A DNA stretch of 51,967 bases from a virus (lineage: Duplodnaviria > Caudoviricetes), in the IMG/VR virus record IMGVR_UViG_3300013117_000053, positions 1 through 51,967 of that record; one strand, 5' to 3'. Below are positions 7,954 to 51,967 of the stretch, piece after piece. The first letter of the stretch is position 1, and each line of letters begins with the position of its first letter. The notes below the pieces were generated by a model that did no database searches, was not told where the DNA came from, and was given only the letters and a program-made list of their open reading frames with translations. The translations under genes and the position numbers were made by a program.

Positions 7954-7998
7954 CAAGCGAAGCGCGGAATGATTGTACCCTCGATGCTCTTGTTGGCC
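7923..7998 (-). repeat. attC-like site 4
   Basis: GGCGAAC...agcatgagggtcaa/ttgTaccctcGatgct...GTTGGCC; extrahelical T and G on the + strand. Confidence 0.85.
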
Positions 7999-8534: not shown

Positions 8535-8577
8535 GTTCAGCGGTGGCGAAGCTGTACGTTGCAACCTCTGGTTGGCA
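8522..8577 (-). repeat. attC-like site 5
   Basis: GGCCAAC...ggttcagcg/cgttgcaacc...GTTGGCA (56 bp). Confidence 0.8.
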
Positions 8578-8597
8578 GAACAATTAGAAAGGACGAT

Positions 8598-15111: not shown

Positions 15112-15539
15112 ATGACGTGAAGCGTACAGATCCGTTTGTGCTGTTGGTAGAGGATGATCGTGATTGGCGTATTGTGTTTAAGCATTATGCAGAGACAGCT
15201 TTCCCCGATGTAATAGTACATTGTGTGAGAACAGTGCATGATGCGATAGCTTTTCTTCGCACGGGGCGTTACTGCATGTGTGTGGTTGTAGATTATGAGT
15301 TGCAGGGTATGCGGGGAGATGCGGTATTGGCAGCACTAGCATTTATGGATGTGCCTGTAGCTATATGGACAGCACATTCTAAGGCTCATCTTAGAGAGAT
15401 GGGGCATTGCTCTTACGGCGATGATGAATGCCTTGTCTTTGAGAAGGGTAATGATGACAAGAGGTTCATGGAGTGGCTGAGTCATGTTGGTAAGGAGCAG
15501 ACTTCAAAATGCCTTATCGCCCGCCCAAAGCAACCATAG
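15108..15539 (+). CDS. Stand-alone response-regulator receiver (REC) domain protein
   Basis: VLLVEDD, VVVDYEL phospho-acceptor Asp, IWTAHS, FEK conserved Lys. Confidence 0.85.
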   Translation: MNDVKRTDPFVLLVEDDRDWRIVFKHYAETAFPDVIVHCVRTVHDAIAFLRTGRYCMCVVVDYELQGMRGDAVLAALAFMDVPVAIWTAHSKAHLREMGHCSYGDDECLVFEKGNDDKRFMEWLSHVGKEQTSKCLIARPKQP

Positions 15540-17128
15540 TTCGTCGTAGGCAGTTACCCCGGCACCACCTATCTCCCGGCAGGGCTGTGCAGCTTATTAA
15601 GAGTAGCCATGTACCGGAGCGGGGATGGAGTGCGCAGACTTTTCGGGGGGAGAACGGTAGGCGACTGATTGATGATTTTGTAATAGCTCATCGAGTTGTG
15701 GTGGCGAAGGGCATTCGCAGGCTGGCACCCCAGATCAAGATCTACTTCAAGTACGTTCTACGGCATACACTCGACAAGTTTACTGAGCGGGCATTGCGTG
15801 TGTATGGTATCCCTCTCAAATCCGGTAGGAAGGATGTACTACAGTCAGTTGTTCTTTCTCCCGGCATGCATGAGGATCTGTGGGCACAGGCGTTAGCAGA
15901 CGTTCTACAGGAAGCAGGGCTTGACTTCTCTATGAATCTAGCTGGAGCTATTCAGGGGGGTGTGGACGCTGCATATGCTACGACAGCTTCTCTTATGGGT
16001 GTGGTAGCACGTCCGGGGACGCAAGGAGTTCTTAATTATCGGGCACAAATGTTGGGGCAGCGTATTACCCGAATATCCGATACTACCAGAAGCATGTTTC
16101 AGCAAATCCTAGGTAATGGTATACAAGACAATCTTACGCCTGTGGAGATGGCAGAGGTATTGCGTTCTCGTTTTCCTCAGATGGCATCATGGCGAACGGC
16201 GATGATTGCCCGTACAGAAATGGGAATGGCAGCAGATGCGGGGCGCATACAGGGGTTGCAGGAATCAGAAGTAGTGACTCATGTATCGGTGATTGGGTGT
16301 GAGGCACGTGAGGCGCATAGCCCTTCGTATCGTGGGGAGTCTACGTGTAATATCAGTGATGTACCTATTGAGGATGCGGAGACGCTGGACTTTCATCCTA
16401 ACCATACGGGATGCATTGTGCCAAGTCGTATGCGTGATGCTTTTGGTGAGGAAGTCGAGTTGACGGATGAGCAAATGGGAGATGCTCCCGCGCTGTTTGA
16501 TGAGGGGGCACCGATAGAGCGAGCGTATACGTCACCGGAAGAGGCAGCACGCGATCTTGATTTTGTGGGGTGGGGCATGCGTTCGGTAGATGGAGTTGCC
16601 GCAACTGAGTATGCTGCGCTGGGTGTTTTGGCGCAAGTGGACAGTCCGTATAGTTATTCCCATATGAACCACTATTTACGAGCTGGGGCATTGGCGTTAG
16701 CGGAGCAAACGATGGAAGAGGTAACGCAAAGGCTTGCGTTGATTGATGCTGCGATAGCGCGGGCAAGTGCCCCCTTTCAATTGCGGTTATATCTTGGTAG
16801 TACTTTGGAGGAGTTCGGTATAGTACAAACTACTCCAGCGGCGTTACGAAATCTGGTAGGTAGGCAATTTACTGATCCGGGGTATATGCTTACGTCTGTG
16901 TCTTCGCAGGTTGTTACCGGGAATATGATTCCTAGTGGGTTTCTTTTGACAGTAAGAATACCTGTAGGGCATGGGGCTATGCCGTTGTTTGTTGGAGGTG
17001 CTGTACGTGATTCGATAGCGCCTATACGTGGAGAGGGGGAGGTACTGCTTCCTCGTGGTACGTCTATCATAGTTCGTGCCGTAAATACGTATGGGCCGGT
17101 TACTGAGATTATGGCAGAAGCGGTCTGA
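15509..17128 (+). CDS. MuF/SPP1 gp7-like minor head protein fused to a VIP2-type ADP-ribosyltransferase-like domain
   Basis: ITRISDTTR, IARTE, HPNH..CI (MuF); Y.HMNHYLR, FTDPGYMLTS, EGEVLLPRGT (ART). Confidence 0.85.
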   Translation: MPYRPPKATIVRRRQLPRHHLSPGRAVQLIKSSHVPERGWSAQTFRGENGRRLIDDFVIAHRVVVAKGIRRLAPQIKIYFKYVLRHTLDKFTERALRVYGIPLKSGRKDVLQSVVLSPGMHEDLWAQALADVLQEAGLDFSMNLAGAIQGGVDAAYATTASLMGVVARPGTQGVLNYRAQMLGQRITRISDTTRSMFQQILGNGIQDNLTPVEMAEVLRSRFPQMASWRTAMIARTEMGMAADAGRIQGLQESEVVTHVSVIGCEAREAHSPSYRGESTCNISDVPIEDAETLDFHPNHTGCIVPSRMRDAFGEEVELTDEQMGDAPALFDEGAPIERAYTSPEEAARDLDFVGWGMRSVDGVAATEYAALGVLAQVDSPYSYSHMNHYLRAGALALAEQTMEEVTQRLALIDAAIARASAPFQLRLYLGSTLEEFGIVQTTPAALRNLVGRQFTDPGYMLTSVSSQVVTGNMIPSGFLLTVRIPVGHGAMPLFVGGAVRDSIAPIRGEGEVLLPRGTSIIVRAVNTYGPVTEIMAEAV

Positions 17129-20165: not shown

Positions 20166-20264
20166 GGGAGTATTGAAGGGGGAAAGGGACTGAACCCGTC
20201 AGTGGTAGTAAGACCTGGACAACCGAGATTTTTGTTGTAATGGTATGAGAAACAGGAGAGCAGG

Positions 20265-21983
20265 ATGAATTTTACCGAAGCACAGAAGAAGCGCCTCATC
20301 GAACTGATCATGAAGGGTGATCGGAACGAAGAGGAGAACGCGGAGCTTGTGACCTTGAAGCAGAAGGCTACCGAGGCAGGTTACAAGTATGACGAGAAGA
20401 CCGGCCAGCCGGTGCAGGAAGACGAAGATGGTCTGAGTGCCGAGGAAGTCAAGACTCTCGTTTCCGATTCCGTTGGCAAGGCTATGAGCCAGATTGGTCT
20501 GGACGAGGATACCGTTACCCAGATCAAGAAGTCTCTGGATGAAACGAAGGACGCTCCTACAGCCGAGAGTATTCAAAAGGCTGTGACGGATGCACTTGGT
20601 GGTAATACCGCTGATCCTGAGGCGTTGGCGAAAGCCATTAAGGACAACCTTCCGGGTGATGTCCTTACGGAAGAGAAGGTCAAAGGTCTTCTTAGTCAGT
20701 TCAAGGAGGATCTGGTTGAGCAGACGCGAAAGGCTGCGAGGATGCAGTTTCCGATGGACGTATCGGCACCTATTGAACATCGCGGCGGCAACCTGACTGT
20801 TGGACAGAAGCAGTTGCTCAATATCTGCCTGATGTCTGTTAGGCAGTCTGCGCTGGATGAGTCAAATGGCGGGCGTGGTATTGCGCGTCCTAAGTCGATG
20901 AATGATGGTATCTCTGAGGAGCAGCTTGCCAAGGCTGCGGCGAATGGCGTTATCGTCATTAAGTCGGCAAGGCACGAAGCTGCGTATGGCGTAAAGACGT
21001 TGACTACAGGTGGTTCTGGGACTGGTGCCGAGTTGATTAACACGGACCTGTCGAGCGACCTTCAGCAGAGGTTGTATCTTGAGTCCCAGCTTGCTGCGCA
21101 GATGATTTCGCAAGAGCTTCAGATGCCCAGCAACCCGTTCAAGTTCCCGTTGGCGACCACTCGTACGACCTTCTATCTTGGTACTGAAGGGACTGCTCCG
21201 AGTGCAAGCGATCCGGGGACTGCGGATATTACCCTTGATGCCGGTAAGTTGATCGGTATCGCTCAGTATAGTTATGAGGCTGATGAGGACAGCATCATCG
21301 CTATTCTGCCGTGGTTGCAGGAGATGCTGGGTAAGGGTGCGGCTGAGTCTCTTGAGGGTGCGCTAGTTAATGGTGACACTACGGCAACACACATGGATTC
21401 TGACATTCATGCGCTGGGTGCGACCGATCATCGCAAAATCTTCAAGGGTTTCCGTAAGCAGGCTATTGTTGGTACTGCGGTTACGGCATCCTCGATTGCG
21501 GTTGACTTTGCTACTGGCGGTGTTTCCGCACAAAATATTGGGGCGCTCCGTAAGGCTATGGGTATCTATGGCGTCAAGCCGGGAGACCTGATGATTGTCT
21601 GTGGCGTGAAGGGTTATAGCGATCTGATCATGTTGGATGAGACGCTGACTGTGGATAAGGTTGGTCCGCAGGCTGCACGTATCTTGACGGGTGTTGCTCC
21701 GCGTCTGTACGGGATTCCTATTATCCCGTCGAGTGCGGTTCGTGAGAACCTGAACGCTACGGGTGTGTATGATGGTGCGACTCTGACTAAGGGTTCGGTC
21801 CTGATGGTTCATAAGCCCAGCTTCATTCTGGGTGTGCGTCGGGGTTTCACGGTTGAAACTGATGTGGACAAGTCCGCACAGGTCAACAAGGTTATCGCCA
21901 GTTTCCGACGTGATCTTGAGCCGACTGAGACGCCGAGCACGAGCCTGCCGATGGTTGGTATGGGCTACAACTACGATAGCTAA
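20265..21983 (+). CDS. Major capsid protein (HK97 fold) with long N-terminal scaffold/delta region
   Basis: LTTGGSGTGAELI, ITLDAGKL...YSYEADEDS, ALVNGD, LYGIPII, FRRD; follows the protease. Confidence 0.9.
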   Translation: MNFTEAQKKRLIELIMKGDRNEEENAELVTLKQKATEAGYKYDEKTGQPVQEDEDGLSAEEVKTLVSDSVGKAMSQIGLDEDTVTQIKKSLDETKDAPTAESIQKAVTDALGGNTADPEALAKAIKDNLPGDVLTEEKVKGLLSQFKEDLVEQTRKAARMQFPMDVSAPIEHRGGNLTVGQKQLLNICLMSVRQSALDESNGGRGIARPKSMNDGISEEQLAKAAANGVIVIKSARHEAAYGVKTLTTGGSGTGAELINTDLSSDLQQRLYLESQLAAQMISQELQMPSNPFKFPLATTRTTFYLGTEGTAPSASDPGTADITLDAGKLIGIAQYSYEADEDSIIAILPWLQEMLGKGAAESLEGALVNGDTTATHMDSDIHALGATDHRKIFKGFRKQAIVGTAVTASSIAVDFATGGVSAQNIGALRKAMGIYGVKPGDLMIVCGVKGYSDLIMLDETLTVDKVGPQAARILTGVAPRLYGIPIIPSSAVRENLNATGVYDGATLTKGSVLMVHKPSFILGVRRGFTVETDVDKSAQVNKVIASFRRDLEPTETPSTSLPMVGMGYNYDS

Positions 21984-22006
21984 GAGTTGACGGTGTGACC
22001 GTCCCG

Positions 22007-22036
22007 AAGGGGAGGCTTTCGGGCCTCCCCTTTGTT
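22007..22036 (+). terminator. Rho-independent terminator after the capsid gene
   Basis: AAGGGGAGGC-tttcgg-GCCTCCCCTT-tgtt. Confidence 0.75.
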
Positions 22037-22082
22037 CTTGATAAGTATAACGAGGTAGCAACAGAGAGCAGGAGAAAACAGA

Positions 22083-23243
22083 ATGAAGCGAATGAAGGAC
22101 AGACTTGGGTTGGTGCAGATCATGGTAGCTATCGTTGTTGTGATGCTGTTGGCGTTTGCATCGGTAGGGAATGCGTTGGAGATCAGTCATACGTTCAGCA
22201 GGACAAAGGTGCCGCAGTCGGGCTTTGTATATCTGAAGGATGTGGATTTTACGACTACGCAGACTCTTTCGATCAACCTGCCGGATAACCTGAACTATCT
22301 GATTGATAGTGTGTATTTCAGGTCAAAGACTGTTACCAGTTTTACGAGCGGGGCAACAGTTGTGGCCTACGAGGTTACGAGTGCGAGTGTGACGAATCAG
22401 ACGGTTCTGCCCTCGTTCTCGTTTCCGAGCACTGATGCTGCGGGTGACGTTCACGACTTGTCCCCCCTTACTGAGAATAGCTCTCGTTCCGGGTATGTTG
22501 AGTTGCCGCTGGTAGCGGCTGCGACAACTAGTGGTATTTTCACTACGGTGACGAATCTCACGAACGGTGCTACGATTGCGGCGGGTAGCTTGACTGATCC
22601 GGGTACTCCTCGGAATGTCGTGCTAACGTTTATTGATGCGGCGGGGGATAACCTTACTGGCTCAGTGGCAGTCAATGGTACTGACTGGACCGGACGTACG
22701 GTAGCTGAGTCTACTACGGTTGTAACCGGGACAGTGAGCTATACCGGAAGTCAGGTGTTCCGTACGCTTACCAGTGTTGTGTACGACTTGTCGAGTGCGG
22801 GAGCGACGAACGACACTTTTGCTGCGGGGTATGGCAGCAAGCTTGGAGTTCCATTTAATCCTGATACTGAAGCTGGTTTTGACGTGGAGACCGTACAGGT
22901 GTGGAATGCCGCACCTACAGTGGCTCTTTCGTTCAATACGCTGTCGCTTACGAATCTTGCAGAGCATGGCGGGACTACAGCGGCTGTTGTGACGAATGGC
23001 AGTGCTACCGCTACGGCGGCAAGTATTACTGCTGAGGCGGCTGCGGCAGAAGATACTACTTATGGTTCGTTCACGGCTACGACTGCGCCGAATGCGGCTA
23101 GGACGTACGGTGTTACCTATACTACGACCGGGACCGCAAGGCCGGATGTGTGGTCGGGCGTCAATAACTTGCAGATCGTGATTACGGGCGGGTCTGCCGC
23201 TGCGGATACTAAGGATGCTGTAATCAGAATGTTTGCGTTCTAG
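22083..23243 (+). CDS. Thr/Ala-rich beta protein with predicted Sec signal peptide (decoration or surface protein)
   Basis: MKRMKDR + hydrophobic core + VGNA cleavage-like site; AGGAG SD. Confidence 0.65.
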   Translation: MKRMKDRLGLVQIMVAIVVVMLLAFASVGNALEISHTFSRTKVPQSGFVYLKDVDFTTTQTLSINLPDNLNYLIDSVYFRSKTVTSFTSGATVVAYEVTSASVTNQTVLPSFSFPSTDAAGDVHDLSPLTENSSRSGYVELPLVAAATTSGIFTTVTNLTNGATIAAGSLTDPGTPRNVVLTFIDAAGDNLTGSVAVNGTDWTGRTVAESTTVVTGTVSYTGSQVFRTLTSVVYDLSSAGATNDTFAAGYGSKLGVPFNPDTEAGFDVETVQVWNAAPTVALSFNTLSLTNLAEHGGTTAAVVTNGSATATAASITAEAAAAEDTTYGSFTATTAPNAARTYGVTYTTTGTARPDVWSGVNNLQIVITGGSAAADTKDAVIRMFAF

Positions 23244-31647: not shown

Positions 31648-32727
31648 GTGGGCGAGTTTCACCTAAGTGTAGAGTTCACTGAAATTTGTGGTGTAGATGT
31701 GCGGGGGACACGAGAGGAGCATGTCATATGTTGCTGTTCGTCTTCTGTTTCATCGTCCTCAGTGTCTTCCTCTGTAAGTAGCCGTAGTGCTTTGTCTGAG
31801 TCGGAAGTGTCTCAATCGGTAGCCGAATCGGGGGGTAGCGAGAGTGGGAGTGTCAGCAGTCGAAGTAGTAGGAGTAGTGTTAGTAGCGAATCCTCTAGTG
31901 TATCTAGTAGTATTTCGTCTAGTAGCGAGGAGAGGATTTACCCTAACAAGTATTACTGTGTTCAAGAAGATCAATGGGACTTGACCGTCGGGGGGTGTCC
32001 TCCGGGTGTGCCAGATAATACTGTGTATAAGGTATTGCAGGGCAAAGATATCGTAGACATTTGCACGCAAGGTCCATTATTTTACTATGAGCATACAGTA
32101 CTGTCAGGGCCGTTCGATACTGCCGAAGAGGCACAACCTTGCCCCCCTTCTTTTCAGGCTGAAGAGGTTATGCTTCTTCATCCTCCTGAGTTTCCGGGGA
32201 TACCACACGATGAGTATGTGCGGCTTGCTACACTAGATGGTAAGAATGTTACCTTGCAGGGTGCTGGGAAGGCGTATGCTGGAGAGGGTTATCGAGTAGC
32301 GTGGAATGCAGATCGGTATCATTGGGAGTTATGGGATAGTGTAGGTTTTGTAGGTGAGTCTATTACGCATACTGCAAGCGATGCGGGTGGGTTGTATCGA
32401 ACAACACGGGGTGCTCGTACGCGGGGGTATAGGCAGTTTCATACGCTAAGACACGAGAAGGGATGGGAGGGGGATTTTCAGCTTGCACCGAAAGGTAGCA
32501 GACGATACCTTGGCAATCGTCAGCTAAAGAACAGGATGCGTCTTGAGTTTGCTGATCTTCGAGAGATGGACAAGTTTCTCCGTAACCTGTCGGGGTTAAT
32601 GTCTGTTGGGAAGAAGCCAGCACGGCTAAGAGTTAAACGCCGCAATCGCTCAGTACGCTATGATCGGGGGGAGAGCATCCTTGATGAGCCTAACGCCGGT
32701 ATTCATTCAGAATCCGAAAACAGCTAG
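31648..32727 (+). CDS. Cys/Ser-rich putative tail fibre or adhesin protein
   Basis: ICCC followed by a ~60-residue Ser-rich tract; same frame as the upstream gene. Confidence 0.6.
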   Translation: MGEFHLSVEFTEICGVDVRGTREEHVICCCSSSVSSSSVSSSVSSRSALSESEVSQSVAESGGSESGSVSSRSSRSSVSSESSSVSSSISSSSEERIYPNKYYCVQEDQWDLTVGGCPPGVPDNTVYKVLQGKDIVDICTQGPLFYYEHTVLSGPFDTAEEAQPCPPSFQAEEVMLLHPPEFPGIPHDEYVRLATLDGKNVTLQGAGKAYAGEGYRVAWNADRYHWELWDSVGFVGESITHTASDAGGLYRTTRGARTRGYRQFHTLRHEKGWEGDFQLAPKGSRRYLGNRQLKNRMRLEFADLREMDKFLRNLSGLMSVGKKPARLRVKRRNRSVRYDRGESILDEPNAGIHSESENS

Positions 32728-33289
32728 TACTTCTATACGCAAAGCACTACCCGGAGTAAAGACGGCATCTTTGCGGAGACACCGTACGGTACACCTACCC
32801 CTCAAACATTGGCACATTCAACGCCAAATCGAGCATGCTGAACGTCCGTGGGTATTTGGGGTAGTACGTCATCCTTTCGATAGGTTCATTTCAGCATGGG
32901 CTTATTTCAAGAAGCCACGTAAACGTACGCTAACGGATTTCTATGTACTGGAGGCTTGTTTACAGGATGGAACTATAAATGACTTTATACGCACTGTAAG
33001 TTTTGAAAAGATTTCAAAGTGGGTGCCCCACTTTAGACGACAGCAGTGGTTTTTCACGAATAGGCAGGGCAAGAGAGATGCTGTTGATCAGCTACTACGT
33101 TTTGAGAATATCGAGCATGAGTTTTCAACGTTGTGCTCGAAGCTGAGTATCCCTCCTTTTGAGTTGCCAAAGATGCGGACGACTAAGCATCCAAGGTGGC
33201 AGGATGTGTTAGGGCAGTCATCTATTAGGAAGTTATTGCGTTTCTACAAACCGGATTTTGAGAGGTACGGGTATGAGTGGGAAGCTTGA
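32684..33289 (+). CDS. Sulfotransferase (Sulfotransfer_2-like)
   Basis: FIQNPKTASTSI (5'-PSB), VVRHPFDRFISAW (3'-PB), HFRRQ, LRFENI, YKPDFERYGY; start uncertain (32660 or 32684). Confidence 0.88.
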   Translation: MSLTPVFIQNPKTASTSIRKALPGVKTASLRRHRTVHLPLKHWHIQRQIEHAERPWVFGVVRHPFDRFISAWAYFKKPRKRTLTDFYVLEACLQDGTINDFIRTVSFEKISKWVPHFRRQQWFFTNRQGKRDAVDQLLRFENIEHEFSTLCSKLSIPPFELPKMRTTKHPRWQDVLGQSSIRKLLRFYKPDFERYGYEWEA

Positions 33290-34025
33290 TCCAATACTAG
33301 TATGGCCTATCAAACCAAAAGGGGGTAGTCGCTGGGATAATAATGAATTGCGCTTCTCTTTGCGATCAGTGCAGAAGCATTGGCATACGTATAACGATAA
33401 GCCGCCGAAAGTGTTTATCCTCACTACAGTAAATGTTCCGTGGTTGAACGAAGAAGAGGTAACGCTTGTACCTGTCCGGGGATACGCAGAGGCAATTATT
33501 ACTACGTGGGAGCTAGCGCGAGAGCATACGCAATCCCACTATTATGTGTGGATGAATGATGATATTTGTTTTCTGCGAGACACTGTAGCTGAGGATCTGA
33601 TGACTGCATTGCATTTGGGCAAAATGCCTCGTCCGAAGGAGGGCGAAAAGCGAGTAAAAAATGGTTGGCGTAGGAAGCTGCATGGGGTTCGCAATAGGCT
33701 ATGGGGGATGGGGATTGAGCCACTAGACTTTTCCACGCATGATCCGTACTTGTTCAATGCAGACAGGATGGAGATAGTTGCTGGATTATTCGGTCTCCAG
33801 TACAAGACTCCGCTAGAGACTGCATACTATAATTTCTGGCGAGAGCAGATACCCCATCGGCGGGCTAAGGGTGATAGAATTGTACGTCATCGAAAAGGGC
33901 GGGGTATCCCCCTTACGTTGAATGGTGAGAGATTTTTGAATTACTCCGAGCAGGGGTGTGATGCCACAATGAAGGGTTATCTGTCTGGGATGTTTCCGTA
34001 CAAATCTCGCTACGAGAAAGGTTAG
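33273..34025 (+). CDS. Stealth-family hexose-1-phosphate transferase-like protein
   Basis: NNELRFSLRSVQKH, VPWL, WMNDDICFL, THDP motifs. Confidence 0.75.
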   Translation: MSGKLDPILVWPIKPKGGSRWDNNELRFSLRSVQKHWHTYNDKPPKVFILTTVNVPWLNEEEVTLVPVRGYAEAIITTWELAREHTQSHYYVWMNDDICFLRDTVAEDLMTALHLGKMPRPKEGEKRVKNGWRRKLHGVRNRLWGMGIEPLDFSTHDPYLFNADRMEIVAGLFGLQYKTPLETAYYNFWREQIPHRRAKGDRIVRHRKGRGIPLTLNGERFLNYSEQGCDATMKGYLSGMFPYKSRYEKG

Positions 34026-34030
34026 GGATA

Positions 34031-34480
34031 ATGACTGATACTAATTATCAGGAGCAGATGGAAAAGGACCGTCAGGAGGCCGCTGCGTGGTCTCAGGGGC
34101 ATTGGAAAGAGCTACAGCAATTGTGGGTAGATCTGCATATTTATGCTGCGCGGTTTTCGCTTTCTCCAAGTACAGAGGATGTAGATGATGCAGAGTCTTG
34201 GCTACAACAATGGTATGTCAAGTTCCCCCCGGATTGTCCGTGCATAGCGGAGTGGACCCGGATCTTAGAGGTGTGTCCGCCCCCTATAGCTAGCGGGGCA
34301 TTAGAGTTTTTTTGGTGGACTGTAGCAGCACATGATAGGGTAAACGTCTATCTGGGTAAGCGGGTATGGGCAAACAAGAGCAAAACACACCCTTTGTTAC
34401 AGCAGTTATTGGAAACCGATGAAGGGAGTCGTGCAGAGTATAAAAGGAGAATGTCTGCTCCTGCTATCAATAAGTGTTGA
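34031..34480 (+). CDS. Erv1/Alr-like FAD sulfhydryl oxidase (CxC variant)
   Basis: LWVDLH...DCPC...WWTVAAHDRVNVYLGK matches the Erv pattern W..LH/PCxxC/W...HN.VN..LGK. Confidence 0.75.
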   Translation: MTDTNYQEQMEKDRQEAAAWSQGHWKELQQLWVDLHIYAARFSLSPSTEDVDDAESWLQQWYVKFPPDCPCIAEWTRILEVCPPPIASGALEFFWWTVAAHDRVNVYLGKRVWANKSKTHPLLQQLLETDEGSRAEYKRRMSAPAINKC

Positions 34481-34487
34481 GGTGTAG

Positions 34488-35357
34488 GTGAAAGCTGTAC
34501 TGTATTTAATGCCTAGACAGGCAAAACCAGCATGGAATACTCATGTGTCTAGGGCGTGGCCTGCGTTCAAGAGAGGTATGCAACGGCACGGAGTTCAGGT
34601 GTATACTTACGTAGAGGACAGTAACCGTGCTACCCCTCCTTATGGTGATGTTGTAGTTACGATGGGGTGGAGAAAGACAAGGAATCCAGTGGTATGTGGT
34701 GCTAGAAATCTTGTACTGGACTCTGGGTATGTAGGTGCGCGGAAGGGAGCGTGTGTGTCTTTTGGGTGGGATGGGTTGAGTGGTATGGCACAGGGGATAC
34801 CGCCAATACCAGGTAGGGGTAAATTATTGCTAGGGAGAGATATGGTTCCATGGCGCGGTCGGGAGGTGCGTAATGTCCTACTAGCGGGGCAGGTGCCGGG
34901 AGATTCTGCGTTGGATGGAGTAGGGCGGTATGCTACGTGGCTTAGAGTGGTAGGGGGGGAGTTAAGAGTTGCGGGGTATCATGTATTATATCGGCCACAC
35001 CCACTTGCTCATGGTAAAATTAGACGGTCTAGAGGTAAGCGCAGAGATAGTGTGCGTAGGTTACTTGGGTTATCTGTGTCAGGTAAGCCTTTGGTGGATG
35101 ATTTGAACTGGGCAGATATGGTGGTATCGTGGAGTAGTAATACGCTTGTGGATGCAGCCATACACGGTATTCCTGTTTGTCCCTTTTCGCGTATAGCTAT
35201 GGTATGGGGGATACGTACTCCGTGGGGTATGTTTGCTACCCCTAATTTATGCGATAGGGATGGGTGGCTGGATTACGTGTGTTCTAGGCAATGGAACATA
35301 CCAGAGTTATTGTCGGGGGAGGCGTGGGATTACATACGGCAAGGAGTATACATGTGA
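34488..35357 (+). CDS. GT-B glycosyltransferase resembling capsule synthesis (KpsS/KpsC-like) family
   Basis: LAGQVPGDSA, YRPHP, WSSNTLVDAAIHGIPV, QWNIPEL.SG. Confidence 0.75.
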   Translation: MKAVLYLMPRQAKPAWNTHVSRAWPAFKRGMQRHGVQVYTYVEDSNRATPPYGDVVVTMGWRKTRNPVVCGARNLVLDSGYVGARKGACVSFGWDGLSGMAQGIPPIPGRGKLLLGRDMVPWRGREVRNVLLAGQVPGDSALDGVGRYATWLRVVGGELRVAGYHVLYRPHPLAHGKIRRSRGKRRDSVRRLLGLSVSGKPLVDDLNWADMVVSWSSNTLVDAAIHGIPVCPFSRIAMVWGIRTPWGMFATPNLCDRDGWLDYVCSRQWNIPELLSGEAWDYIRQGVYM

Positions 35358-36061
35358 GTAAGAGGGTAATATATACCTCAGCAGTGTCTAGGCACATGCC
35401 GTGGTGGGGTCGTTGGGTAAAAAAACGATTTGAGCGATACGCTACTAGGGTAGGCGCTACTTTGGTTAATTTACCATCATGTCGGCATCGTGGTAGATTA
35501 GGGAAGTACTGGGTTAAGTTCGATGCTTTTAAGAGATCGCTGGTAGTAGCAGAGCAGTATCCTGATGCACAGTTTTTATGGTTAGATGCTGATGTGATTT
35601 TGCGACCTATGAAAGTTCCAAATTTATTTGAGTTGGGGGAGGGATTATGGTCGTGTGTTTCGGATAATGGTATGAGTTATCGTCCACGGTCTTATAGGCA
35701 GAATCATTATATGTTTGGTGTTCCATTGATGGCTCCCCATCCGACTAATGCTATTATTCTGTGGGGCAAGAAAGAGGCAAGAGCTATACTACGAGAATAC
35801 GCGAACATACCCTCAGTGTTGCGAATAGAGCAGCGACTGACAGACGAGGGAGGGTTGTGCGTGTTAGCGTATAAAGCTGAGATACCTATACAGTGGGTGC
35901 CTGCGGGCTGGCATAGGATGACTAGTAAGTTTCATAGGAGTACTCAGTTTTTCCACGCGGCGGGTGGTGGCAAGATGAAGAAATGCCGTAGGGCATTGCG
36001 TATTATTCGACGGGTGAGACAGAATGAGAGGCGACGAGCGAAAATAAGAGGTAAGAGGTAA
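35354..36061 (+). CDS. GT-A glycosyltransferase (GT34/GT8-like)
   Basis: YATRVGA, WVK, LWLDADVIL DxD motif, TDEG, FFHAAG; GTG start near 35354 inferred. Confidence 0.75.
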   Translation: MSKRVIYTSAVSRHMPWWGRWVKKRFERYATRVGATLVNLPSCRHRGRLGKYWVKFDAFKRSLVVAEQYPDAQFLWLDADVILRPMKVPNLFELGEGLWSCVSDNGMSYRPRSYRQNHYMFGVPLMAPHPTNAIILWGKKEARAILREYANIPSVLRIEQRLTDEGGLCVLAYKAEIPIQWVPAGWHRMTSKFHRSTQFFHAAGGGKMKKCRRALRIIRRVRQNERRRAKIRGKR

Positions 36062-36063
36062 TT

Positions 36064-36717
36064 ATGTCTGCGCGTGTGTTGTATACTTCTGCGGGACCAG
36101 AGCTACGGTACTGGAAGATTAGTAAACCATACATTGAGCATTACGCTAATAAGGTAGGGGCAAAACTAGTAGTTATCCCAAAGACACGTAGAGTACAGCG
36201 TATGCGGGTATTGTTTGATGCTATGGAGAAATCATTGTTGTGTGAGAGCGATACTGTGTGCGCATGGGTAGATGCGGATATTATTGTACGTAGAACAGCC
36301 CCTGACATATTCGGCACACCCGACAAGTTGCTATTTTGTTCCCCAGAACCGGCTAAGCGAGTACACCCTAGATGGATTAGGGAGTATAAATCTTTTGGCG
36401 TACTCCATCCCCGTCCTTATGTTATTACAGCGATTGTACGTTGGTCTACAAGATATGCGAGACGCATCGTGTCATGGTTAGAGGTTAATGAGGGTAGCCT
36501 GCCTGACAGTATGGATGATCAATCCATATGTACGCTTGCTTGTTGGCAAATGGATATTGCGGTTGCTTATTTTCCATCTACATGGCATAAGATGCATTGG
36601 CGAGTAAAGCGAGGAACGCAATTTTTGCATGCCGCGTCAAGGAACAAAGTCAAAAACTTATGTAAGCTAGCGAAATTGGCAGACCGTAGAGATAAGATGG
36701 TATTGGGGAAGTTGTGA
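36064..36717 (+). CDS. GT-A glycosyltransferase, paralog of the upstream gene
   Basis: YANKVGA, WVDADIIV, DDQS, FLHAAS. Confidence 0.75.
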   Translation: MSARVLYTSAGPELRYWKISKPYIEHYANKVGAKLVVIPKTRRVQRMRVLFDAMEKSLLCESDTVCAWVDADIIVRRTAPDIFGTPDKLLFCSPEPAKRVHPRWIREYKSFGVLHPRPYVITAIVRWSTRYARRIVSWLEVNEGSLPDSMDDQSICTLACWQMDIAVAYFPSTWHKMHWRVKRGTQFLHAASRNKVKNLCKLAKLADRRDKMVLGKL

Positions 36718-37409
36718 GAAAAAGAAAAAAACACAAGGTAATAGCATCGCCTCCTGCTGTGGATTACCATAGGATACGGGGAATGGGTGAGCCTTGTGAC
36801 AGGGATACGTATGCTATGGGAAATCTGGCATACCTAATAGGTAAGCACAACATAGATACAGTGGTAGAGACAGGGGTGCGGAGTGGGAGTACTACGTTAT
36901 TTTTTGCTAATTTGGTAAGTAGGGTATATGGGGTAGACCTGTGTATATCAGATGTAGCAAAGGATAGGGTGTTGTCGTGTATGCGTAGACGGTGGTTAGC
37001 TTCTCATAGTGTTACGTGGTACGAGGGAGACAGTCAGAAGTTAATGCCTGTTATCGTTAGTAGTGTACGTACAGAGCCAGTGCTGTTTTACTTGGATGCA
37101 CACGACTCGCCTAGTAACCCAAAAGGCATGACCCCTGTACCGTTACTTGGAGAATTGCAGGCTATAGCAAGTATGAGTACTCCTCCTGTAGTGGTAGTAC
37201 ATGACTGTGCAGTACCAGAGGAGCCTGAGCATATCTGTATGCCTAATGCTCATAATGGGGGAACTATATGCTATGATTTTATGAAAGAAATACTAGCGGA
37301 GTTTCACTGGAATTGGCGTATTGAGTATAACTCTTTTAGTAGAGGTAAGGGTGCGGCACCGTGGTATGATACCCCAAGTATGGGAGTTGCTTACATTCTT
37401 CCGTGTTGA
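36714..37409 (+). CDS. Class I SAM-dependent methyltransferase (small-molecule or glycan type)
   Basis: VVETGVRSGST, EGDS, LFYLDAH, EL..I, VVVHD. Confidence 0.8.
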   Translation: MRKRKKHKVIASPPAVDYHRIRGMGEPCDRDTYAMGNLAYLIGKHNIDTVVETGVRSGSTTLFFANLVSRVYGVDLCISDVAKDRVLSCMRRRWLASHSVTWYEGDSQKLMPVIVSSVRTEPVLFYLDAHDSPSNPKGMTPVPLLGELQAIASMSTPPVVVVHDCAVPEEPEHICMPNAHNGGTICYDFMKEILAEFHWNWRIEYNSFSRGKGAAPWYDTPSMGVAYILPC

Positions 37410-45654: not shown

Positions 45655-45837
45655 ATGACATTTGTTGAGGAGTTACCTAGTTTACTAATTCGGCTCACAG
45701 AAGAGGAAGCGCGCTCTTTGTTAATTCGGCGGGGTGTGTTTGTTGCTGAGGGGAAAGCTAAGGCTGAGGTACTGAGCGGTAAGCATACGTTCAACTACGG
45801 TGAGTATTTGTGGGTAAAGGATACGGTGGAGAAGTGA
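45655..45837 (+). CDS. Small hypothetical protein
   Basis: GGGGAG SD; GTGA overlap with polA. Confidence 0.5.
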   Translation: MTFVEELPSLLIRLTEEEARSLLIRRGVFVAEGKAKAEVLSGKHTFNYGEYLWVKDTVEK

Positions 45838-48800
45838 GTGATATACGCGTAGCGGGCAACAACGTAAATCCTAGAGTAGTGGTAGTGACTGAGCCGCCGT
45901 CTGAGAGGACGTATATCGCTAACAAGGTGATGAGCAATGCTGTGATGCGAGTATTCCGCGAGAATGCTACAGCTTGTGGTTTTCATAGGGATGATTTTGT
46001 ATTCGTTACTCCTTGCCCGCCGATACCGGCGGACATGGCGGTAAGTGATAGCAGGACTAACGCTTACCTAGATCAGTACAGAGAGAGATTCATAGTGACA
46101 CTCAGACCTCTAGCCCAGCGGGCGGGGGTTGTTTTGTATTTGGGGCGATGGGCTGGACGGCAGGTAACAGGCAAGACTGTCAAGATCACCAAAGCGCGGG
46201 GGCGTATCCAGACTGTGAGCGGGGTGCCTGCCCCGGTACTCCCCCTTCTATCACCGGGACAAGTGCTGAGGCGACCGGAGAACCGGGATATATTTTCGTC
46301 TGATTTTAAGCTTGCCGGAAATCTACGGGAAGCGGATTGGAGTTTTCAGGAATACACTGACACGTTTGGTGAGCGTGATTATCGGTGGTGCCTTGATCTG
46401 TCACAGGAGATGGACATAGACAACCCTCCCCCGGCAATGGCGCTTGATGCAGAGTGGACAAGTCGAGAGCAGATCCGGAATGAAAAACCGTGGGGGGAAA
46501 AGCTGTGGTATAACGGGTTGCGGGTTCTTACGATACAGCTATCGTGGAGGGAAGGACAGGCGATTGCTATCCCTGTTGATTTAGCATACTGGAACGATGA
46601 AGAGTTGCGGGGCCGTACGAGTGCACACCTTCCTTACCTTAGTGAGCGAATGCGCCGAATGTTGATTATGCAATTACGGCGTGTTCTTGGTAATCCGAGT
46701 ACGGCAATAACAGGGCATTTCTTGAAAGCAGATCAGCATGCTCTGAAGACGCTGAATATCTTAGTACGGCGATGGCAACACGATACGGTACAGCTTGCTT
46801 TTGTGGTAGACGATAATATGCTGAGCAAGACGCTGGATGACTGCATTCGACGGTGGGAGCCAGCCATCGCAGGATACGCAGATGATTTCAATGATCTTGT
46901 GGACAAGGCGCGAATGGATGAAGTGCCGCATGACAGGCTGTTGCCGTATGCGTGCGGAGACTCGGATGCCAGTTTGCGGCTGTGCAAGACACTTGTGCGG
47001 GAAGCCAAGAAGGATGTAGCTAATTACCGATGCTATACTAAGATCCATATGCCTGCCCTTCGTACGTTTTTTAGAGTTGAGCGGTATGGGTTGAGGATGG
47101 ATCAGGAATCATTGATTGATCTTGTGCGGGTCGCAGGGGATGCTGAGCGAGAGTTGTATAACGATTTGATGCGGCAAATACCGCGCAGGCTCAAACAGAG
47201 GCATTTGGATAATCCGGAACACAAAGGTAAGATCCCGGAGGATATTCTGTCGTTTTCTCGACATGATTTTACGCGGGATGTGCTGTTTAGCGCGAGGCGG
47301 GAAGGGGGGCGGGGGTTAATGCCTAGGGTGTTTACAAAGACAACCGAGAACCTACCCCCGGCTGAGCGTGTGCCGTCAACGTCAAGTAAGGAGCATTTGC
47401 CGTACTTTGAGGAGGATACGTTTGTTGCGGATTTGATGGATTATCAGAAGTTGCAGAAGCTTCGTAGTACGTACATAGGTGCCCCGGCGTCTCAGAAGTA
47501 TCACGGGGTAAAACTGTTGAAGAGTGGTACGAAGTACGAGAAGCGGGCGCAGGATGTAATTGATAGGATTCTTGAGGATGAGAATTTTGATGTTCAGTAT
47601 GTGACACCTCCTCCTCCGGATGAGGAGATATGGCCGGAGGGGGATGAGGGTAATTTCCGTACTGGACGTGTCAAGGCGGGGCGGGAATTGGTTATTGATG
47701 TGGCGGGGCATCCGTGGTGGCGTGATATCGAAGATCCTACAGGTTTTTGGAAGTACTTGTCTGGTGAGGGGAATATACACCCAGCGTACATCTTGCACCG
47801 TACTAATACTGGACGTACAGCGTCATCGTCGCCAAACGGTCAGAACATACCAAAGCGGGGGAAGACCCCGCGTATGCAGGAGTTCATAGAGGCATATCGG
47901 CGGTGTTTTAGGGCTAGACCGGGGTATGTGCTGATTGAGGCTGATTTGTCGCAAGCTGAGCTGCGTTTGGCGGCATGGATGGCTAGAGAGCCTACTATGC
48001 TCCGAATCTATGCTATGGGTGGGGATATTCATGCGGCGACGGCGACAAAGGTGATGGGTATCACGATAGAAGAGTTTATGGCGTTACCCGATAAGCAGCG
48101 GAAGCTTGCGCGGTTTCGGGCAAAGGCTGTCAATTTTGGGTTTTGTATCGCAGAAGATTCGTTAGTGTTAACGAATGAGGGTCTTGTAAGGATTCAGGAT
48201 ATAACGATTAGACATCTTGTATGGGATGGTGTAGAGTGGGTTCGGCATTGTGGATTGGTGTACCGGGGTATACGAAAGGTGATAGAGTATGATGGGCTCA
48301 CAGCAACATCAGAGCATAAAGTGTGGTTGCAGGACGGACGGACGGTTTCGTTCGGGGAAGCAGCATCCAAGATGGAGAACGAACGAATCGCTGTTACGGC
48401 AATTGGGACAAAAGCAGTACGGGTGTCTTTTTCTGACGGGCCGGATAGAGAAGAGGGAGCGCAGTCGGAGGTACTGCGAAGCGGTATGCTCTATGTGCAG
48501 ACAGAGGTATTGGATTCTTGTGGACAACTTATTGTCAGGCAAGACTACAAACTGCAAATGTCAGCGAGCGAGAAAGTATCATGCGCCTCAGAATGTTGTT
48601 CGGACTCTTGGAGCACGGTACGATGCTATGGTACAGCGGTGCGAACGATGGACACACAGGAGTTCAGCGAACTACAAAGGAAGAGGGATACGCGTAGAGT
48701 TTCTTTCACGAGAGTCGTTTATCAGGTGGGCCTTAGAGATGTGGCCGGGTGTGACGTTCAAGGGGCTAGATTTCGACAGAATAAACAACGACGGGAATTA

Positions 48801-49547
48801 CTCGAAGAGCAATTTGCGGTTGGTATCGAGGCGAACGAATCTGCTGAACAGAACCAGAAAAAGGTCTATGACTTACTAGATGCGGGTCCTAGACGTAGGT
48901 TTACGGTTAATGGTAAGTTGGTATCAAATTGTTACGGCATGGGTTGGCGTAAGTTTATGAGCTATGCTAAGACTGAATACGGTATTGACGTGACAGAGCA
49001 GGAGGCGCAGAGAACGCGGGAGGCGTTCTTTGAGTTATACTCTGGGTTGTCTCCGTGGCACGATGGTATGCGGGCGTTTTGTCGCGAGCACGGATACGTG
49101 AGGGCACTGCACGGCGCTCTCAGGCGTTTGCCGTCTGTGTATTCCGATGATGAGCTAACGCAGTACGCTTCTGAACGGCAGGGCATAAATGCCCCGGTTC
49201 AACGCATGGCTTCTGATCTTGGGTTGATCGGTATGAATCGTTTTGCCGCTGATTGTCCGATGGATTGGGAGAATCCGTGGAGTGAAACCGATCTGATGCA
49301 CCCTATCGCGTTCATCCATGACGCTACGCAGATCGAAGCGCGAGAGGAAGTTGCGGAGGAGGCGGCGGGGGCACTTAAATGGTACATGCAGACGCCCCCC
49401 CTTCTGGAGTGGTTCAGTATAGAGCCTCCGATGGATATCGTGTCAGATGTGTCTATTGGTTACAACCTGCAAGAGTTAGAAGAAAGACCCGATGTAGAAG
49501 CCATACGACCAGAATGGGCGCGGGTACACGTTGTGGGGGATATGTAA
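45834..49547 (+). CDS. polA: Family A DNA polymerase with N-terminal UDG-like domain, 3'-5' exonuclease and intein (SPO1-like architecture)
   Basis: VVTEPP...ITKARG...SPGQVLR (UDG-like); LDAE and YACGD (exonuclease); TGRTASSSPNGQNIP, EADLSQAELR, KAVNFGF..YG, IHDA. Confidence 0.95.
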   Translation: MSDIRVAGNNVNPRVVVVTEPPSERTYIANKVMSNAVMRVFRENATACGFHRDDFVFVTPCPPIPADMAVSDSRTNAYLDQYRERFIVTLRPLAQRAGVVLYLGRWAGRQVTGKTVKITKARGRIQTVSGVPAPVLPLLSPGQVLRRPENRDIFSSDFKLAGNLREADWSFQEYTDTFGERDYRWCLDLSQEMDIDNPPPAMALDAEWTSREQIRNEKPWGEKLWYNGLRVLTIQLSWREGQAIAIPVDLAYWNDEELRGRTSAHLPYLSERMRRMLIMQLRRVLGNPSTAITGHFLKADQHALKTLNILVRRWQHDTVQLAFVVDDNMLSKTLDDCIRRWEPAIAGYADDFNDLVDKARMDEVPHDRLLPYACGDSDASLRLCKTLVREAKKDVANYRCYTKIHMPALRTFFRVERYGLRMDQESLIDLVRVAGDAERELYNDLMRQIPRRLKQRHLDNPEHKGKIPEDILSFSRHDFTRDVLFSARREGGRGLMPRVFTKTTENLPPAERVPSTSSKEHLPYFEEDTFVADLMDYQKLQKLRSTYIGAPASQKYHGVKLLKSGTKYEKRAQDVIDRILEDENFDVQYVTPPPPDEEIWPEGDEGNFRTGRVKAGRELVIDVAGHPWWRDIEDPTGFWKYLSGEGNIHPAYILHRTNTGRTASSSPNGQNIPKRGKTPRMQEFIEAYRRCFRARPGYVLIEADLSQAELRLAAWMAREPTMLRIYAMGGDIHAATATKVMGITIEEFMALPDKQRKLARFRAKAVNFGFCIAEDSLVLTNEGLVRIQDITIRHLVWDGVEWVRHCGLVYRGIRKVIEYDGLTATSEHKVWLQDGRTVSFGEAASKMENERIAVTAIGTKAVRVSFSDGPDREEGAQSEVLRSGMLYVQTEVLDSCGQLIVRQDYKLQMSASEKVSCASECCSDSWSTVRCYGTAVRTMDTQEFSELQRKRDTRRVSFTRVVYQVGLRDVAGCDVQGARFRQNKQRRELLEEQFAVGIEANESAEQNQKKVYDLLDAGPRRRFTVNGKLVSNCYGMGWRKFMSYAKTEYGIDVTEQEAQRTREAFFELYSGLSPWHDGMRAFCREHGYVRALHGALRRLPSVYSDDELTQYASERQGINAPVQRMASDLGLIGMNRFAADCPMDWENPWSETDLMHPIAFIHDATQIEAREEVAEEAAGALKWYMQTPPLLEWFSIEPPMDIVSDVSIGYNLQELEERPDVEAIRPEWARVHVVGDM
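48144..48929 (+). mobile_element. Intein (262 aa) inserted in PolA motif B
   Basis: NFGF|CIAEDSLV, ATSEHKV block B, VYDLLDAGPRRRFTVNGKLVSN|CYG. Confidence 0.93.
48289..48879 (+). CDS. HNH homing endonuclease nested in the +1 frame of the PolA intein
   Basis: C..C zinc motifs, NLLSGKTTNCKC, AMVQRC, NYKGRGIRV, DRINNDGNYSKSNLRLVS...N..N; SD AAGGTGA 6 nt before ATG. Confidence 0.88.
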   Translation: MMGSQQHQSIKCGCRTDGRFRSGKQHPRWRTNESLLRQLGQKQYGCLFLTGRIEKRERSRRYCEAVCSMCRQRYWILVDNLLSGKTTNCKCQRARKYHAPQNVVRTLGARYDAMVQRCERWTHRSSANYKGRGIRVEFLSRESFIRWALEMWPGVTFKGLDFDRINNDGNYSKSNLRLVSRRTNLLNRTRKRSMTY

Positions 49548-49549
49548 AA

Positions 49550-50518
49550 GTGACACCCTATTATCAGGATCAGTTGATTACGCTGTACCATGCGGGGTGT
49601 GAGGAAGTAATGGGGGGTATTCGTGGCGTAACAGCGGTTGTATCTGATCCCCCCTATGGTATTAGACTATTTCAACATAAGTGGGATTACAGTATACCTA
49701 GTGTTGCTATTCTGAGAATGATTAGAGTAGCGTGCTGCACTGGAAGTACATGGTTAGTGTTTGGGGGTACGAGAACAGTGCATCGACTTATGGTAAATAT
49801 CGAAGATGTAGGAATGCATCTAAAAGATATGATTATATGGGTGCATTCGCAGGGTTTTCCAAAGGGGCATGATATAGGGCAGGCGATTAATAAGAAGCGG
49901 GGAAAAGGTAAGGGGGATAAGTGGTTAGGTTATCGGAGTTGTCTAAAACCGGCGTGGGAGCCTATTGTAGTAGCTGAGTTTTCGTTTGAGGGTGCGTATT
50001 ACCAGCAGGCATTACGAGATGGGGTATCTGGACTCAATATAGATGCTTGTCGTATTGCTAGTGGAGGAGAGAGCAGAGTACAGGCGTACAGTGGGGGAGG
50101 GTTTCATAATACATATGGGGGTGAGTATGTATATACGGATAAGGGGCGGTATCCTGCTAATGTTATATTAGAGGACAGCCAAGAGGTACTTGCGGGTATG
50201 CCGAGAAATGTGCGTCGGTTATTCTTCTGCCCAAAAGCTAGTAAGCAAGAGAAAAGGTTAGAGGGTGGGGAAAGAAATAGACATCCTACGGTAAAGCCTT
50301 TGAAGCTGATGGAGTACTTAATTCGTATGGTGACTATGCCGGATAAGAATAAAATACTTGATCCTTATGCGGGGAGTGGTACGACGGGGGTAGCGTGTAA
50401 GCGACTAGGTATCAGGGCGGTTTTAGTTGAGCAAGAGGAGGAATGGTGTGAGGTTGCGGCACGTAGATTGCAGGGGTGTCAGCAGTTACCAAAAAGGCGC
50501 AGTTCTATTAGCCGGTGA
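49550..50518 (+). CDS. DNA N6/N4 methyltransferase, beta class
   Basis: VSDPPYG, GFPKG, LKPAWEPI, GRYPANV, HPTVKP, ILDPYAGSGTTG; GTG start inferred. Confidence 0.92.
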   Translation: MTPYYQDQLITLYHAGCEEVMGGIRGVTAVVSDPPYGIRLFQHKWDYSIPSVAILRMIRVACCTGSTWLVFGGTRTVHRLMVNIEDVGMHLKDMIIWVHSQGFPKGHDIGQAINKKRGKGKGDKWLGYRSCLKPAWEPIVVAEFSFEGAYYQQALRDGVSGLNIDACRIASGGESRVQAYSGGGFHNTYGGEYVYTDKGRYPANVILEDSQEVLAGMPRNVRRLFFCPKASKQEKRLEGGERNRHPTVKPLKLMEYLIRMVTMPDKNKILDPYAGSGTTGVACKRLGIRAVLVEQEEEWCEVAARRLQGCQQLPKRRSSISR

Positions 50519-51052: not shown

Positions 51053-51122
51053 ATCCTCAATTCTCGCAATGGCTTCGAGCAGTGGCTTACCCTTGCCACC
51101 AAAAACGGATGGATCAAGACGG

Positions 51123-51967
51123 ATGAGTAATATCGACATCGTTACAGGTGATGCACTTGATGAACTGAAGAAGATAGACGCATCTTCTGTCGATCTCGTG
51201 ATTGCTGACCCTCCCTATAACCTTGGCAAAGACTATGGAAACAACCATGACGTCAAAGGGTTTGATGAATACCTTCAGTTCTCCAGAAACTGGCTCGGAG
51301 AAGCTCACCGCGTTCTGAAGCCAACAGGGACCCTCTATGTTTTCATGGGCTTCAGGTTCATCTCATACCTATATGATATTCTTGATCGTGATCTTCAGAT
51401 GTTCTTCAACACCTGGATCGTTTGGCATTACACGCAAGGAATGGGAAAAACGAAGGGCTTCTCTCCAAGGCATGATGACATCCTCATGTTCACAAAGGGG
51501 AAGAAAGCCAAATTCAACCTCGACGCGGTTCGTGTCCCGCAGAAGTTCTACAGGGAGAGGAACAACATGCGCGGGGCAAATCCTGGGGATGTCTGGGAGT
51601 TTTCCCATGTCCACTACTGCAACGGGAATAGACAGAACCATCCAACCCAGAAACCAGAAGGACTCATTGAGCGCATGGTTCTCGCATCATCGGATGAAGG
51701 GGACCTAGTTCTTGACCCGTTTTCGGGAAGCGGCACAACGCTGCGTGTGTGCCAGCAGCTGGATAGAGATGCCGTCGGAATTGAGATCAATCCTGACTAC
51801 GTCACAATGACAAGAGACAGACTCGGAACTTCATTCTCTGGTTTTGACAGCGTTGATCCTCGCATGGAGCGAGTTCCTCGTGACCTCCGACGACCTGAAC
51901 TCCGTCAGGAGTACTTGGAGAACCACAGGAAGTGGTTCCTTGCGCGCCACGAGAATGCAGCTCAGAA
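51123..51967 (+). CDS. DNA N6/N4 methyltransferase, beta class, truncated by the window end (absent from the ORF track)
   Basis: MSNIDIVTGDAL, IADPPYNLGK, HPTQKPEGL, VLDPFSGSGTT; frame open to the end. Confidence 0.9.
   Translation, partial: MSNIDIVTGDALDELKKIDASSVDLVIADPPYNLGKDYGNNHDVKGFDEYLQFSRNWLGEAHRVLKPTGTLYVFMGFRFISYLYDILDRDLQMFFNTWIVWHYTQGMGKTKGFSPRHDDILMFTKGKKAKFNLDAVRVPQKFYRERNNMRGANPGDVWEFSHVHYCNGNRQNHPTQKPEGLIERMVLASSDEGDLVLDPFSGSGTTLRVCQQLDRDAVGIEINPDYVTMTRDRLGTSFSGFDSVDPRMERVPRDLRRPELRQEYLENHRKWFLARHENAAQ

Follow-up and report, generated by a model that had tools for sequence, protein, structure and literature searches.

An out-of-frame HNH-family nuclease gene nested within a likely self-splicing intein of a phage family A DNA polymerase

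Inteins whose homing endonuclease (HEN) is encoded outside the splicing frame are already on record. The accessible text of a 2025 preprint on actinobacteriophage inteins describes endonuclease VII-like HENs in frame 3, or antisense LAGLIDADG or VSR-like HENs (bioRxiv 10.1101/2025.01.02.630785), and a 2026 preprint, which credits Gorbalenya 1998, describes a cyanobacterial DnaX intein carrying a LAGLIDADG gene in the +2 frame (bioRxiv 10.64898/2026.09.14.751524). Here we analyse a 51,967-nucleotide stretch of phage DNA (IMG/VR record IMGVR_UViG_3300013117_000053; hereafter the window), in which the gene for a family A DNA polymerase (PolA) contains an in-frame insert. From its sequence, we consider this insert likely to be a self-splicing intein that carries a likely homing nuclease as a separate gene shifted by one base, probably with its own internal ribosome-binding site. 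The original prediction for this locus, made from the window alone, took in-frame domains to be the norm for intein endonucleases; the two preprints show that an out-of-frame layout has precedents.

As far as the available text of the actinobacteriophage preprint goes, the window resembles those inteins in combining a continuous intein, a HEN in another frame and a proposed invasion by a free-standing HEN, but differs in that a PacI-like HNH nuclease overlies splicing blocks B and F within PolA and in that the out-of-frame state is the rule (118 of 122 nuclease-bearing elements). With the DnaX intein it shares a disordered in-frame middle, frame-specific ratios of non-synonymous to synonymous substitution (dN/dS), a putative Shine-Dalgarno (SD) sequence, coexisting mini-inteins and the absence of any in-frame form, whereas that intein has a LAGLIDADG nuclease at one cellular site and the present family an HNH-family nuclease at many sites in phage PolA. 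The P45 polymerase intein of phage APSE-1, with its nested P46 (RefSeq NC_000935.1), belongs to the same intein family and has an HNH coding sequence annotated inside the polymerase coding sequence in the +1 frame, but it occupies a different site (after YGGK) and the nested HNH there is an annotation only; the APSE papers searched make no mention of HNH. In the accessible part of its description (PMC11855218), the ShiLan domain is likewise an out-of-frame HNH inside a phage gene whose own frame is left open, but with no splicing domain, a non-essential methylase as host and no detectable ribosome-binding site. Fractured genes, in the available portion of their report (PMC2677866), similarly have a separately encoded endonuclease lodged between the two parts of an intein and overlapping the C-terminal one, and split versions also occur in the PolA intein family (L049, L051, L052, L060 and L066, the L-numbers denoting loci of relatives); in fractured genes the host gene is broken in two, whereas here it is continuous. 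Literature searches turned up no publication in which a PolA intein carries its HNH out of frame, although one may exist among supplements or subscription papers.

The insert lies in PolA motif B, seven residues past the conserved Lys and directly ahead of the Tyr, and is absent from 45 unique intein-free alleles of the window's motif type and from related polymerases. Residues C1, T55 and H58 (in what we take to be block B), D243 (presumably block F) and N262 are invariant across 58 aligned relatives, and the penultimate residue is Ser instead of His, as it is in 53 of 134 relatives. The family profile matches Mtu RecA mini-inteins at E about 1e-3, and an AlphaFold model of the polymerase-frame (frame 0) intein has beta-rich ends, with a predicted local distance difference test score (pLDDT) of 86-98, around a middle that is coil (pLDDT 40-53). 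The intact class 1 residues make a self-splicing class 1 intein the likely identity of the insert. As predicted originally, it is 262 residues long, with splicing residues at both ends and no endonuclease in its own frame: the frame-0 middle gave zero matches in the same profile search that identified the +1 protein.

In that search the +1 protein matched PHROG HNH families 374 (6e-24), 3377 (8e-18) and 2081, and separate Pfam and NCBIfam searches with it gave zero matches. The PolA frame and the +1 frame are both uninterrupted over 591 nucleotides, and the +2 frame across the intein is closed by stops. The predicted overlap with both splicing blocks is borne out by the coordinates, the +1 open reading frame (ORF) spanning block B (48306-48317) and terminating within block F (D243 at 48870-48872, stop at 48877-48879).

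Selection acts differently on the two frames. Over the core, 14 independent pairs of +1 elements (two of them singly saturated, the window itself in no pair) gave a dN/dS of 0.21 in the +1 frame versus 1.72 in frame 0, the frame-specific constraint that the original prediction had anticipated; upstream of the ATG, values are 0.10-0.16 in frame 0 and 1.5-2.3 in +1, and the block-B overlap is constrained in both frames (0.32 and 0.67). Compared with L180, the relative nearest to it, the window shares 71% of its core amino acids when read in +1, as against 47% when read in frame 0. Synonymous redraws of the HNH codons produced a mean of 12.4 frame-0 stops and left frame 0 open in 0 of 500 cases, and the third frame holds 9 stops against 7.7 expected by the same redraws; the 56 inteins of this stop-avoidance set were pre-filtered for an open frame 0 and have zero stops by construction, only the expected numbers being informative, and the unfiltered check of frame continuity is the census described below. 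These results support a separate +1 gene under purifying selection and a frame-0 passenger that is merely kept free of stops. Because the +1 frame is conserved and frame 0 is unconstrained and modelled as disordered, within the core the nuclease gene is the older of the two and the frame-0 sequence amounts to filler; the overprint is therefore the passenger and not, as had been proposed, the HNH, of which only the ends overlap real intein residues. Related HNH genes exist in phage records without an intein match.

Relatives were collected as 259 loci from viral, metagenome and genome contigs and annotated phages, several searches contributing their best 80 matches. After removal of 35 duplicates and 11 cut-off copies, 142 unique complete elements, window included, were classified with profiles built from the same loci, which aids detection and does not choose the frame. 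The HNH lies in +1 in 106 continuous elements (one with a stop in the HNH) and in +2 in a further 12; 16 continuous elements are minis without a detectable HNH, and eight are broken or split. The 118 continuous elements with an out-of-frame HNH thus stand against 0 with one in frame, and the four other HNH-bearing elements are one split form (L066) and three with stops or a frameshift (L072, L202 and L222). In the core, homologues conserve +1 and not frame 0, and on their evidence frameshift errors displacing an in-frame HNH are rejected. Cultured or named phages with the +1 form are APSE-1, Caulobacter RW, Javan113, Gva_AB1 and SFCi1, and those with the +2 form are EBPR2 and MR14. A decay series (L057, L059, L225, L240, L243, L210 and L011) shows internal deletions with HNH remnants in +1, including a deletion in L210 and a stop in the HNH in L011, and because such remnants are kept in +1, several minis look like deletions of full elements. 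The remaining four split elements surround a different homing-endonuclease gene. At L049:3001-4218, L051:3001-4236, L052:3001-4201 and L060:951-2148, the intein family is split, upstream of PolA motif A, around a GIY-YIG-like gene, a label based on a motif judged by eye, the PHROG matches being to homing-endonuclease families.

The AAGGTGA proposed as a ribosome-binding site is indeed present ahead of the +1 ATG, and in the two relatives nearest to the window a perfect SD, AGGAGGT, precedes the homologous ATG by 8 nucleotides. Across the family, in counts that cover related sequences, 98 of 106 elements have an SD-led start from which the frame stays open into the HNH. Synonymous redraws, scored under a null in which the frame must likewise be open, predict 17.8 such starts, and the other frame has one in 13 of 106; the +2 members have starts of their own in 12 of 12 cases. 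At the homologous site, codons that spell ATG are used in 50 of 57 elements, compared with 476 of 1,369 (35%) in exteins, and the SD-improving Glu codon is used in 38 of 45, compared with a background of 138 of 260. Minis proved unsuitable as a negative control, since 12 of 16 retain an SD-led start. A promoter scan inside the intein found one sigma-70-like site (48209-48237) against 1.7 expected by chance, and a hairpin hiding the ribosome-binding site was not significant (z +1.16). Judged from these signals, internal initiation is probably the best reading of how the +1 nuclease is translated.

The +1 protein, whose AlphaFold model is folded with a mean pLDDT of 87.5, contains a cluster of Cys67, Cys70, Cys89 and Cys91 and the series Asp163-Arg164, Tyr171, Asn175 and Asn184/Asn187. 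Tyr171 is invariant in 52 of 52 aligned proteins and Asp or Glu occupies the Asp163 position in 51 of 52, and a canonical His-type HNH of the I-HmuI kind was ruled out by Arg164, present in all 52 where His is expected. Compared with solved structures, the family profile matched I-HmuI best (1u3e; E 0.012) and PacI next (3ldy/3m7k; E 0.14), aligning to the active-site regions of both; D163-R164 and Y171 align with PacI chain positions 92, 93 and 100, the Tyr lying eight residues past the Asp, which is the register of PacI. In the accessible parts of the PacI literature, Tyr stands in for His (PMC5714182, PMC3384342). By alignment, the +1 nuclease has a PacI-like Asp-Arg...Tyr site in place of the HNH histidine, and it is likely to be enzymatically active. 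It lacks the His of I-HmuI, PacI is a dimeric restriction enzyme, and the scores against both are weak; a single-sequence search of the PDB with the +1 protein gave no useful match. The original description of a clear phage HNH protein therefore stands as regards family and falls as regards the canonical catalytic residue.

In the mechanism that we infer, ribosomes in the polymerase frame would yield a precursor with about 130 residues of unstructured filler between the splicing halves, and splicing, as the intact class 1 residues suggest, would remove intein and filler together, while the 196-residue nuclease would come from ribosomes initiating separately, at the ATG at 48289. Upon co-infection, polA alleles lacking the intein would be nicked or cut by this nuclease close to motif B, and through repair they would gain both the intein and its Cys codon in place of Leu or Ile. 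Most likely, the layout arose when a mini-intein was invaded by a free-standing nuclease gene of a phage, after which selection would have removed frame-0 stops while conserving the +1 protein; the selection pattern itself is observed. The originally proposed free-standing, separately translated HNH thus holds as a separate gene under purifying selection, with a passenger kept open and a probable start of its own; its translation and homing, like the splicing of the intein, belong to the proposed mechanism just outlined.

Several observations weigh against this interpretation. In the window itself the SD is of modest strength (-6.9 kcal/mol, equalled by 23% of redraws under a generous null that ignores stops and that was replaced in the family test), the homologous start site is missing in 49 of 106 elements, which start elsewhere, so its position is not fixed, the minis also retain SD-led starts, with no difference in ATG use from full elements (p 0.61), and the census counts are not phylogenetically independent. 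As to the nuclease, no His is found at the I-HmuI catalytic position, the profile likeness to PacI is weak by itself, a structure search ranked PacI (3m7k) second of 48,161 at a level below that trusted (Z 5.6, root-mean-square deviation 7.0, 86 aligned), Foldseek with the nuclease model gave no match at E<=0.001, and an exclusion assay of one PacI-like phage HNH showed no activity, according to the available part of that report (PMC12724721). An alternative interpretation is that the +1 protein is expressed and conserved without being a homing nuclease here, either binding without cutting or cutting elsewhere, as in competitor exclusion, and merely sheltering in the intein. The missing His base, the inactive PacI-like protein and the diverged nucleases carried by the near-identical inteins of L025 and L030 would fit such a role, but we consider it unlikely given that Asp, Arg, Tyr and Asn are near-invariant and in the register of PacI, where Tyr substitutes for His, that the window nuclease groups with nucleases of the same insertion site, and that horizontal spread is seen.

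The nuclease might also be made as a fusion, by +1 ribosomal frameshifting out of the N-terminal part of the intein. The +1 frame opening at variable positions, the start codon not being at one place and the eight of 106 elements without a good SD-led start are compatible with this, but it is made quite improbable by the strong enrichment of SD and start, by the retention of the ATG despite a changed frame-0 residue (His for Tyr in L042, Ala after Tyr in L181) and by the +2 members with their own starts; no conserved slippery site was seen in the alignment, by eye only. HNH genes are known in phage polA introns (I-HmuI), and the insert could accordingly be imagined as an RNA intron with an internal ORF; purifying selection on the intein residues in frame 0, the open frame 0 itself and an Rfam search of 47500-49600 that returned no match at E<=1 render this very improbable. 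That sequencing or assembly frameshifts displaced an in-frame HNH, or that the ORF arose by chance, has a practically negligible probability: the one read run (X1), with 6% of words in common, reaches only 49250-49400, outside the intein, and so leaves room for such an error, but sequencing error is refuted by the same layout in 117 other continuous elements, cultured phages among them, and frame-specific selection and stop avoidance oppose both versions. We therefore retain the reading of a likely intein with a separately translated nuclease gene.

Comparison of inteins with exteins points to a patchy, horizontal distribution, seen from pairwise identities. L003 and L183 have similar elements in unlike polymerases (identity 77% in the intein N-terminal part and 58% in the HNH, compared with 31% and 14% in the exteins), and the exteins of the window are equally close to the intein-free L094 (59%, 68%) and the intein-bearing L180 (64%, 53%). 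In quick trees with few columns, three broad groups recur for splicing domains and for nucleases alike, and the window nuclease clusters with nucleases from the same insertion site. L025 and L030 are 92% identical in the intein N-terminal part and 92% and 86% in the exteins, with an HNH identity of only 55%; because some near-identical inteins carry such diverged nucleases, intein and nuclease can come apart. The predicted decoupling of homing from splicing is accordingly borne out in part, by these diverged nucleases, and qualified by the shared tree groups. As separate observations, L008, L060, L061 and L066 each have two elements of the family at different sites in one polymerase, L041 has the intein in an exonuclease-like motif, and L047, L053, L056 and L076 have the same intein in another host context, which we take to resemble an SNF2-type helicase.

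Among 134 elements, the motif-B positions are K+2 (43), K+3 (2), K+5 (2), K+6 (34) and K+7 (12), three further positions in a later PolA helix hold 20, and 21 are unclassified; the K+7 elements L017 and L040 are nested among K+2 elements with a support of 99. In 125 of the 134, the intein is directly followed by Cys. In 63 unique empty motif-B alleles, most of them of the window's type so that comparators for other sites are thin, Cys occurs 0 times at K+2, 0 times at K+7 and 4 times at K+6, and none of the 45 intein-free alleles of the window's type has the post-intein Cys. The simplest reading is that the Cys codon travels with the element, which would likely bring its own Cys to new sites. 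The haloarchaeal MCM-d intein (Pro-to-Ser), in the accessible part of its report (PMC10643990), likewise relies on a +1 nucleophile that most empty alleles lack and that has to be co-converted; there a single site presents a barrier with a low invasion rate, whereas the PolA elements show this pattern repeatedly, at several sites along one helix. MCM-d, as far as its available text describes it, was the only precedent for co-conversion of the +1 residue that literature searches found. We tentatively raise a further possibility, which we think less probable than not, that intein, own Cys codon and separately translated, tyrosine-based (PacI-type) nuclease form one mobile unit that hops repeatedly within PolA (to at least five positions in the motif-B helix and three in the later helix) and into other genes. 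Carrying its splicing nucleophile, such a unit would be freed from the need for Cys, Ser or Thr at the target.

The window is a tailed-phage genome with terminase, portal, protease, capsid, DnaB and PolA genes; its main features are listed in Table 1. PolA matches Pfam DNA_pol_A (2.5e-45) and exo1 (2.7e-6; 3'-5' exonuclease), and its N-terminus (45810-46300) has a weak uracil-DNA-glycosylase-like Pfam match under the cut-off (E 0.011). The portal gene (12271-14748) contains a second intein, whose LAGLIDADG domain is in frame, as had been expected. The gene after portal in the head module (15509-17128) encodes a C-terminal ADP-ribosyltransferase (ART) domain (Pfam 6e-11), and its product presumably resembles a head-morphogenesis/ART fusion. 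This 52-kb phage has five DNA methyltransferase-like genes (one C5, one MT-A70 and three N6/N4), and a cluster at 32660-37409 has sulfotransferase, Stealth-like and CmcI-like matches and is perhaps a glycan or DNA modification module. The capsid gene is overlain by long antisense ORFs on the minus strand (21363-22190, 275 residues; 20199-20780, 193 residues), which are probably codon-pattern shadows.

Table 1 Coordinates of the polymerase gene, the intein and its nested gene, and other features of the window
Feature	Position	Strand	Details
PolA host gene (family A DNA polymerase)	45810..49547	+	Uninterrupted ORF; 1245 residues, intein included
Intein, frame 0 (likely)	48144..48929	+	262 residues; Cys1 start, Ser-Asn end, Cys next
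N-terminal splicing region	48144..48440	+	Cys1; block B Thr55/His58 at 48306-48317; invariant columns, frame-0 dN/dS 0.10-0.32
Shine-Dalgarno-like sequence	48276..48283	+	AAGGTGA at 48276-48282, inside intein codons, upstream of +1 ATG
HNH-family (beta-beta-alpha-metal-like) nuclease gene, +1 frame	48289..48879	+	591 nucleotides with stop, 196 residues; PHROG matches
Frame-0 passenger peptide	48441..48830 (approximate)	+	Predicted disordered; free of stops
C-terminal splicing region	48831..48929	+	Block F Asp243 at 48870-48872; Ser261-Asn262; frame-0 dN/dS 0.21 over last 75 nucleotides
First C-extein codon, Cys	48930..48932	+	Leu/Ile/Val/Met in intein-free alleles
DNA methyltransferase-like genes	1269-2273, 7950-8534, 8559-9401, 49379-50518, 51069-51965		

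With the layout known since 2025-26, the surprise is moderate, and what this locus and its relatives add is a nuclease without the HNH His and with a PacI-like site, a Cys that all 45 empty alleles of the window's type lack, and close relatives at different positions of one helix. Although described in print as rare, out-of-frame nucleases predominate in this phage PolA intein family, which is widespread. Its nuclease escaped both Pfam and NCBIfam here, and its carriers include cultured phages, such as Caulobacter phage RW, suited to testing internal translation and homing. Full, decayed, mini and split forms, together with site shifts accompanied by a likely imported Cys, are relevant to the ways in which inteins acquire nucleases and spread to new sites, and experiments would best be directed at the repeated site shifts and the Cys that they seem to import. 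Should the mobile-unit proposal be true, the family would offer a chance to observe, and to test, how new intein insertion sites arise.

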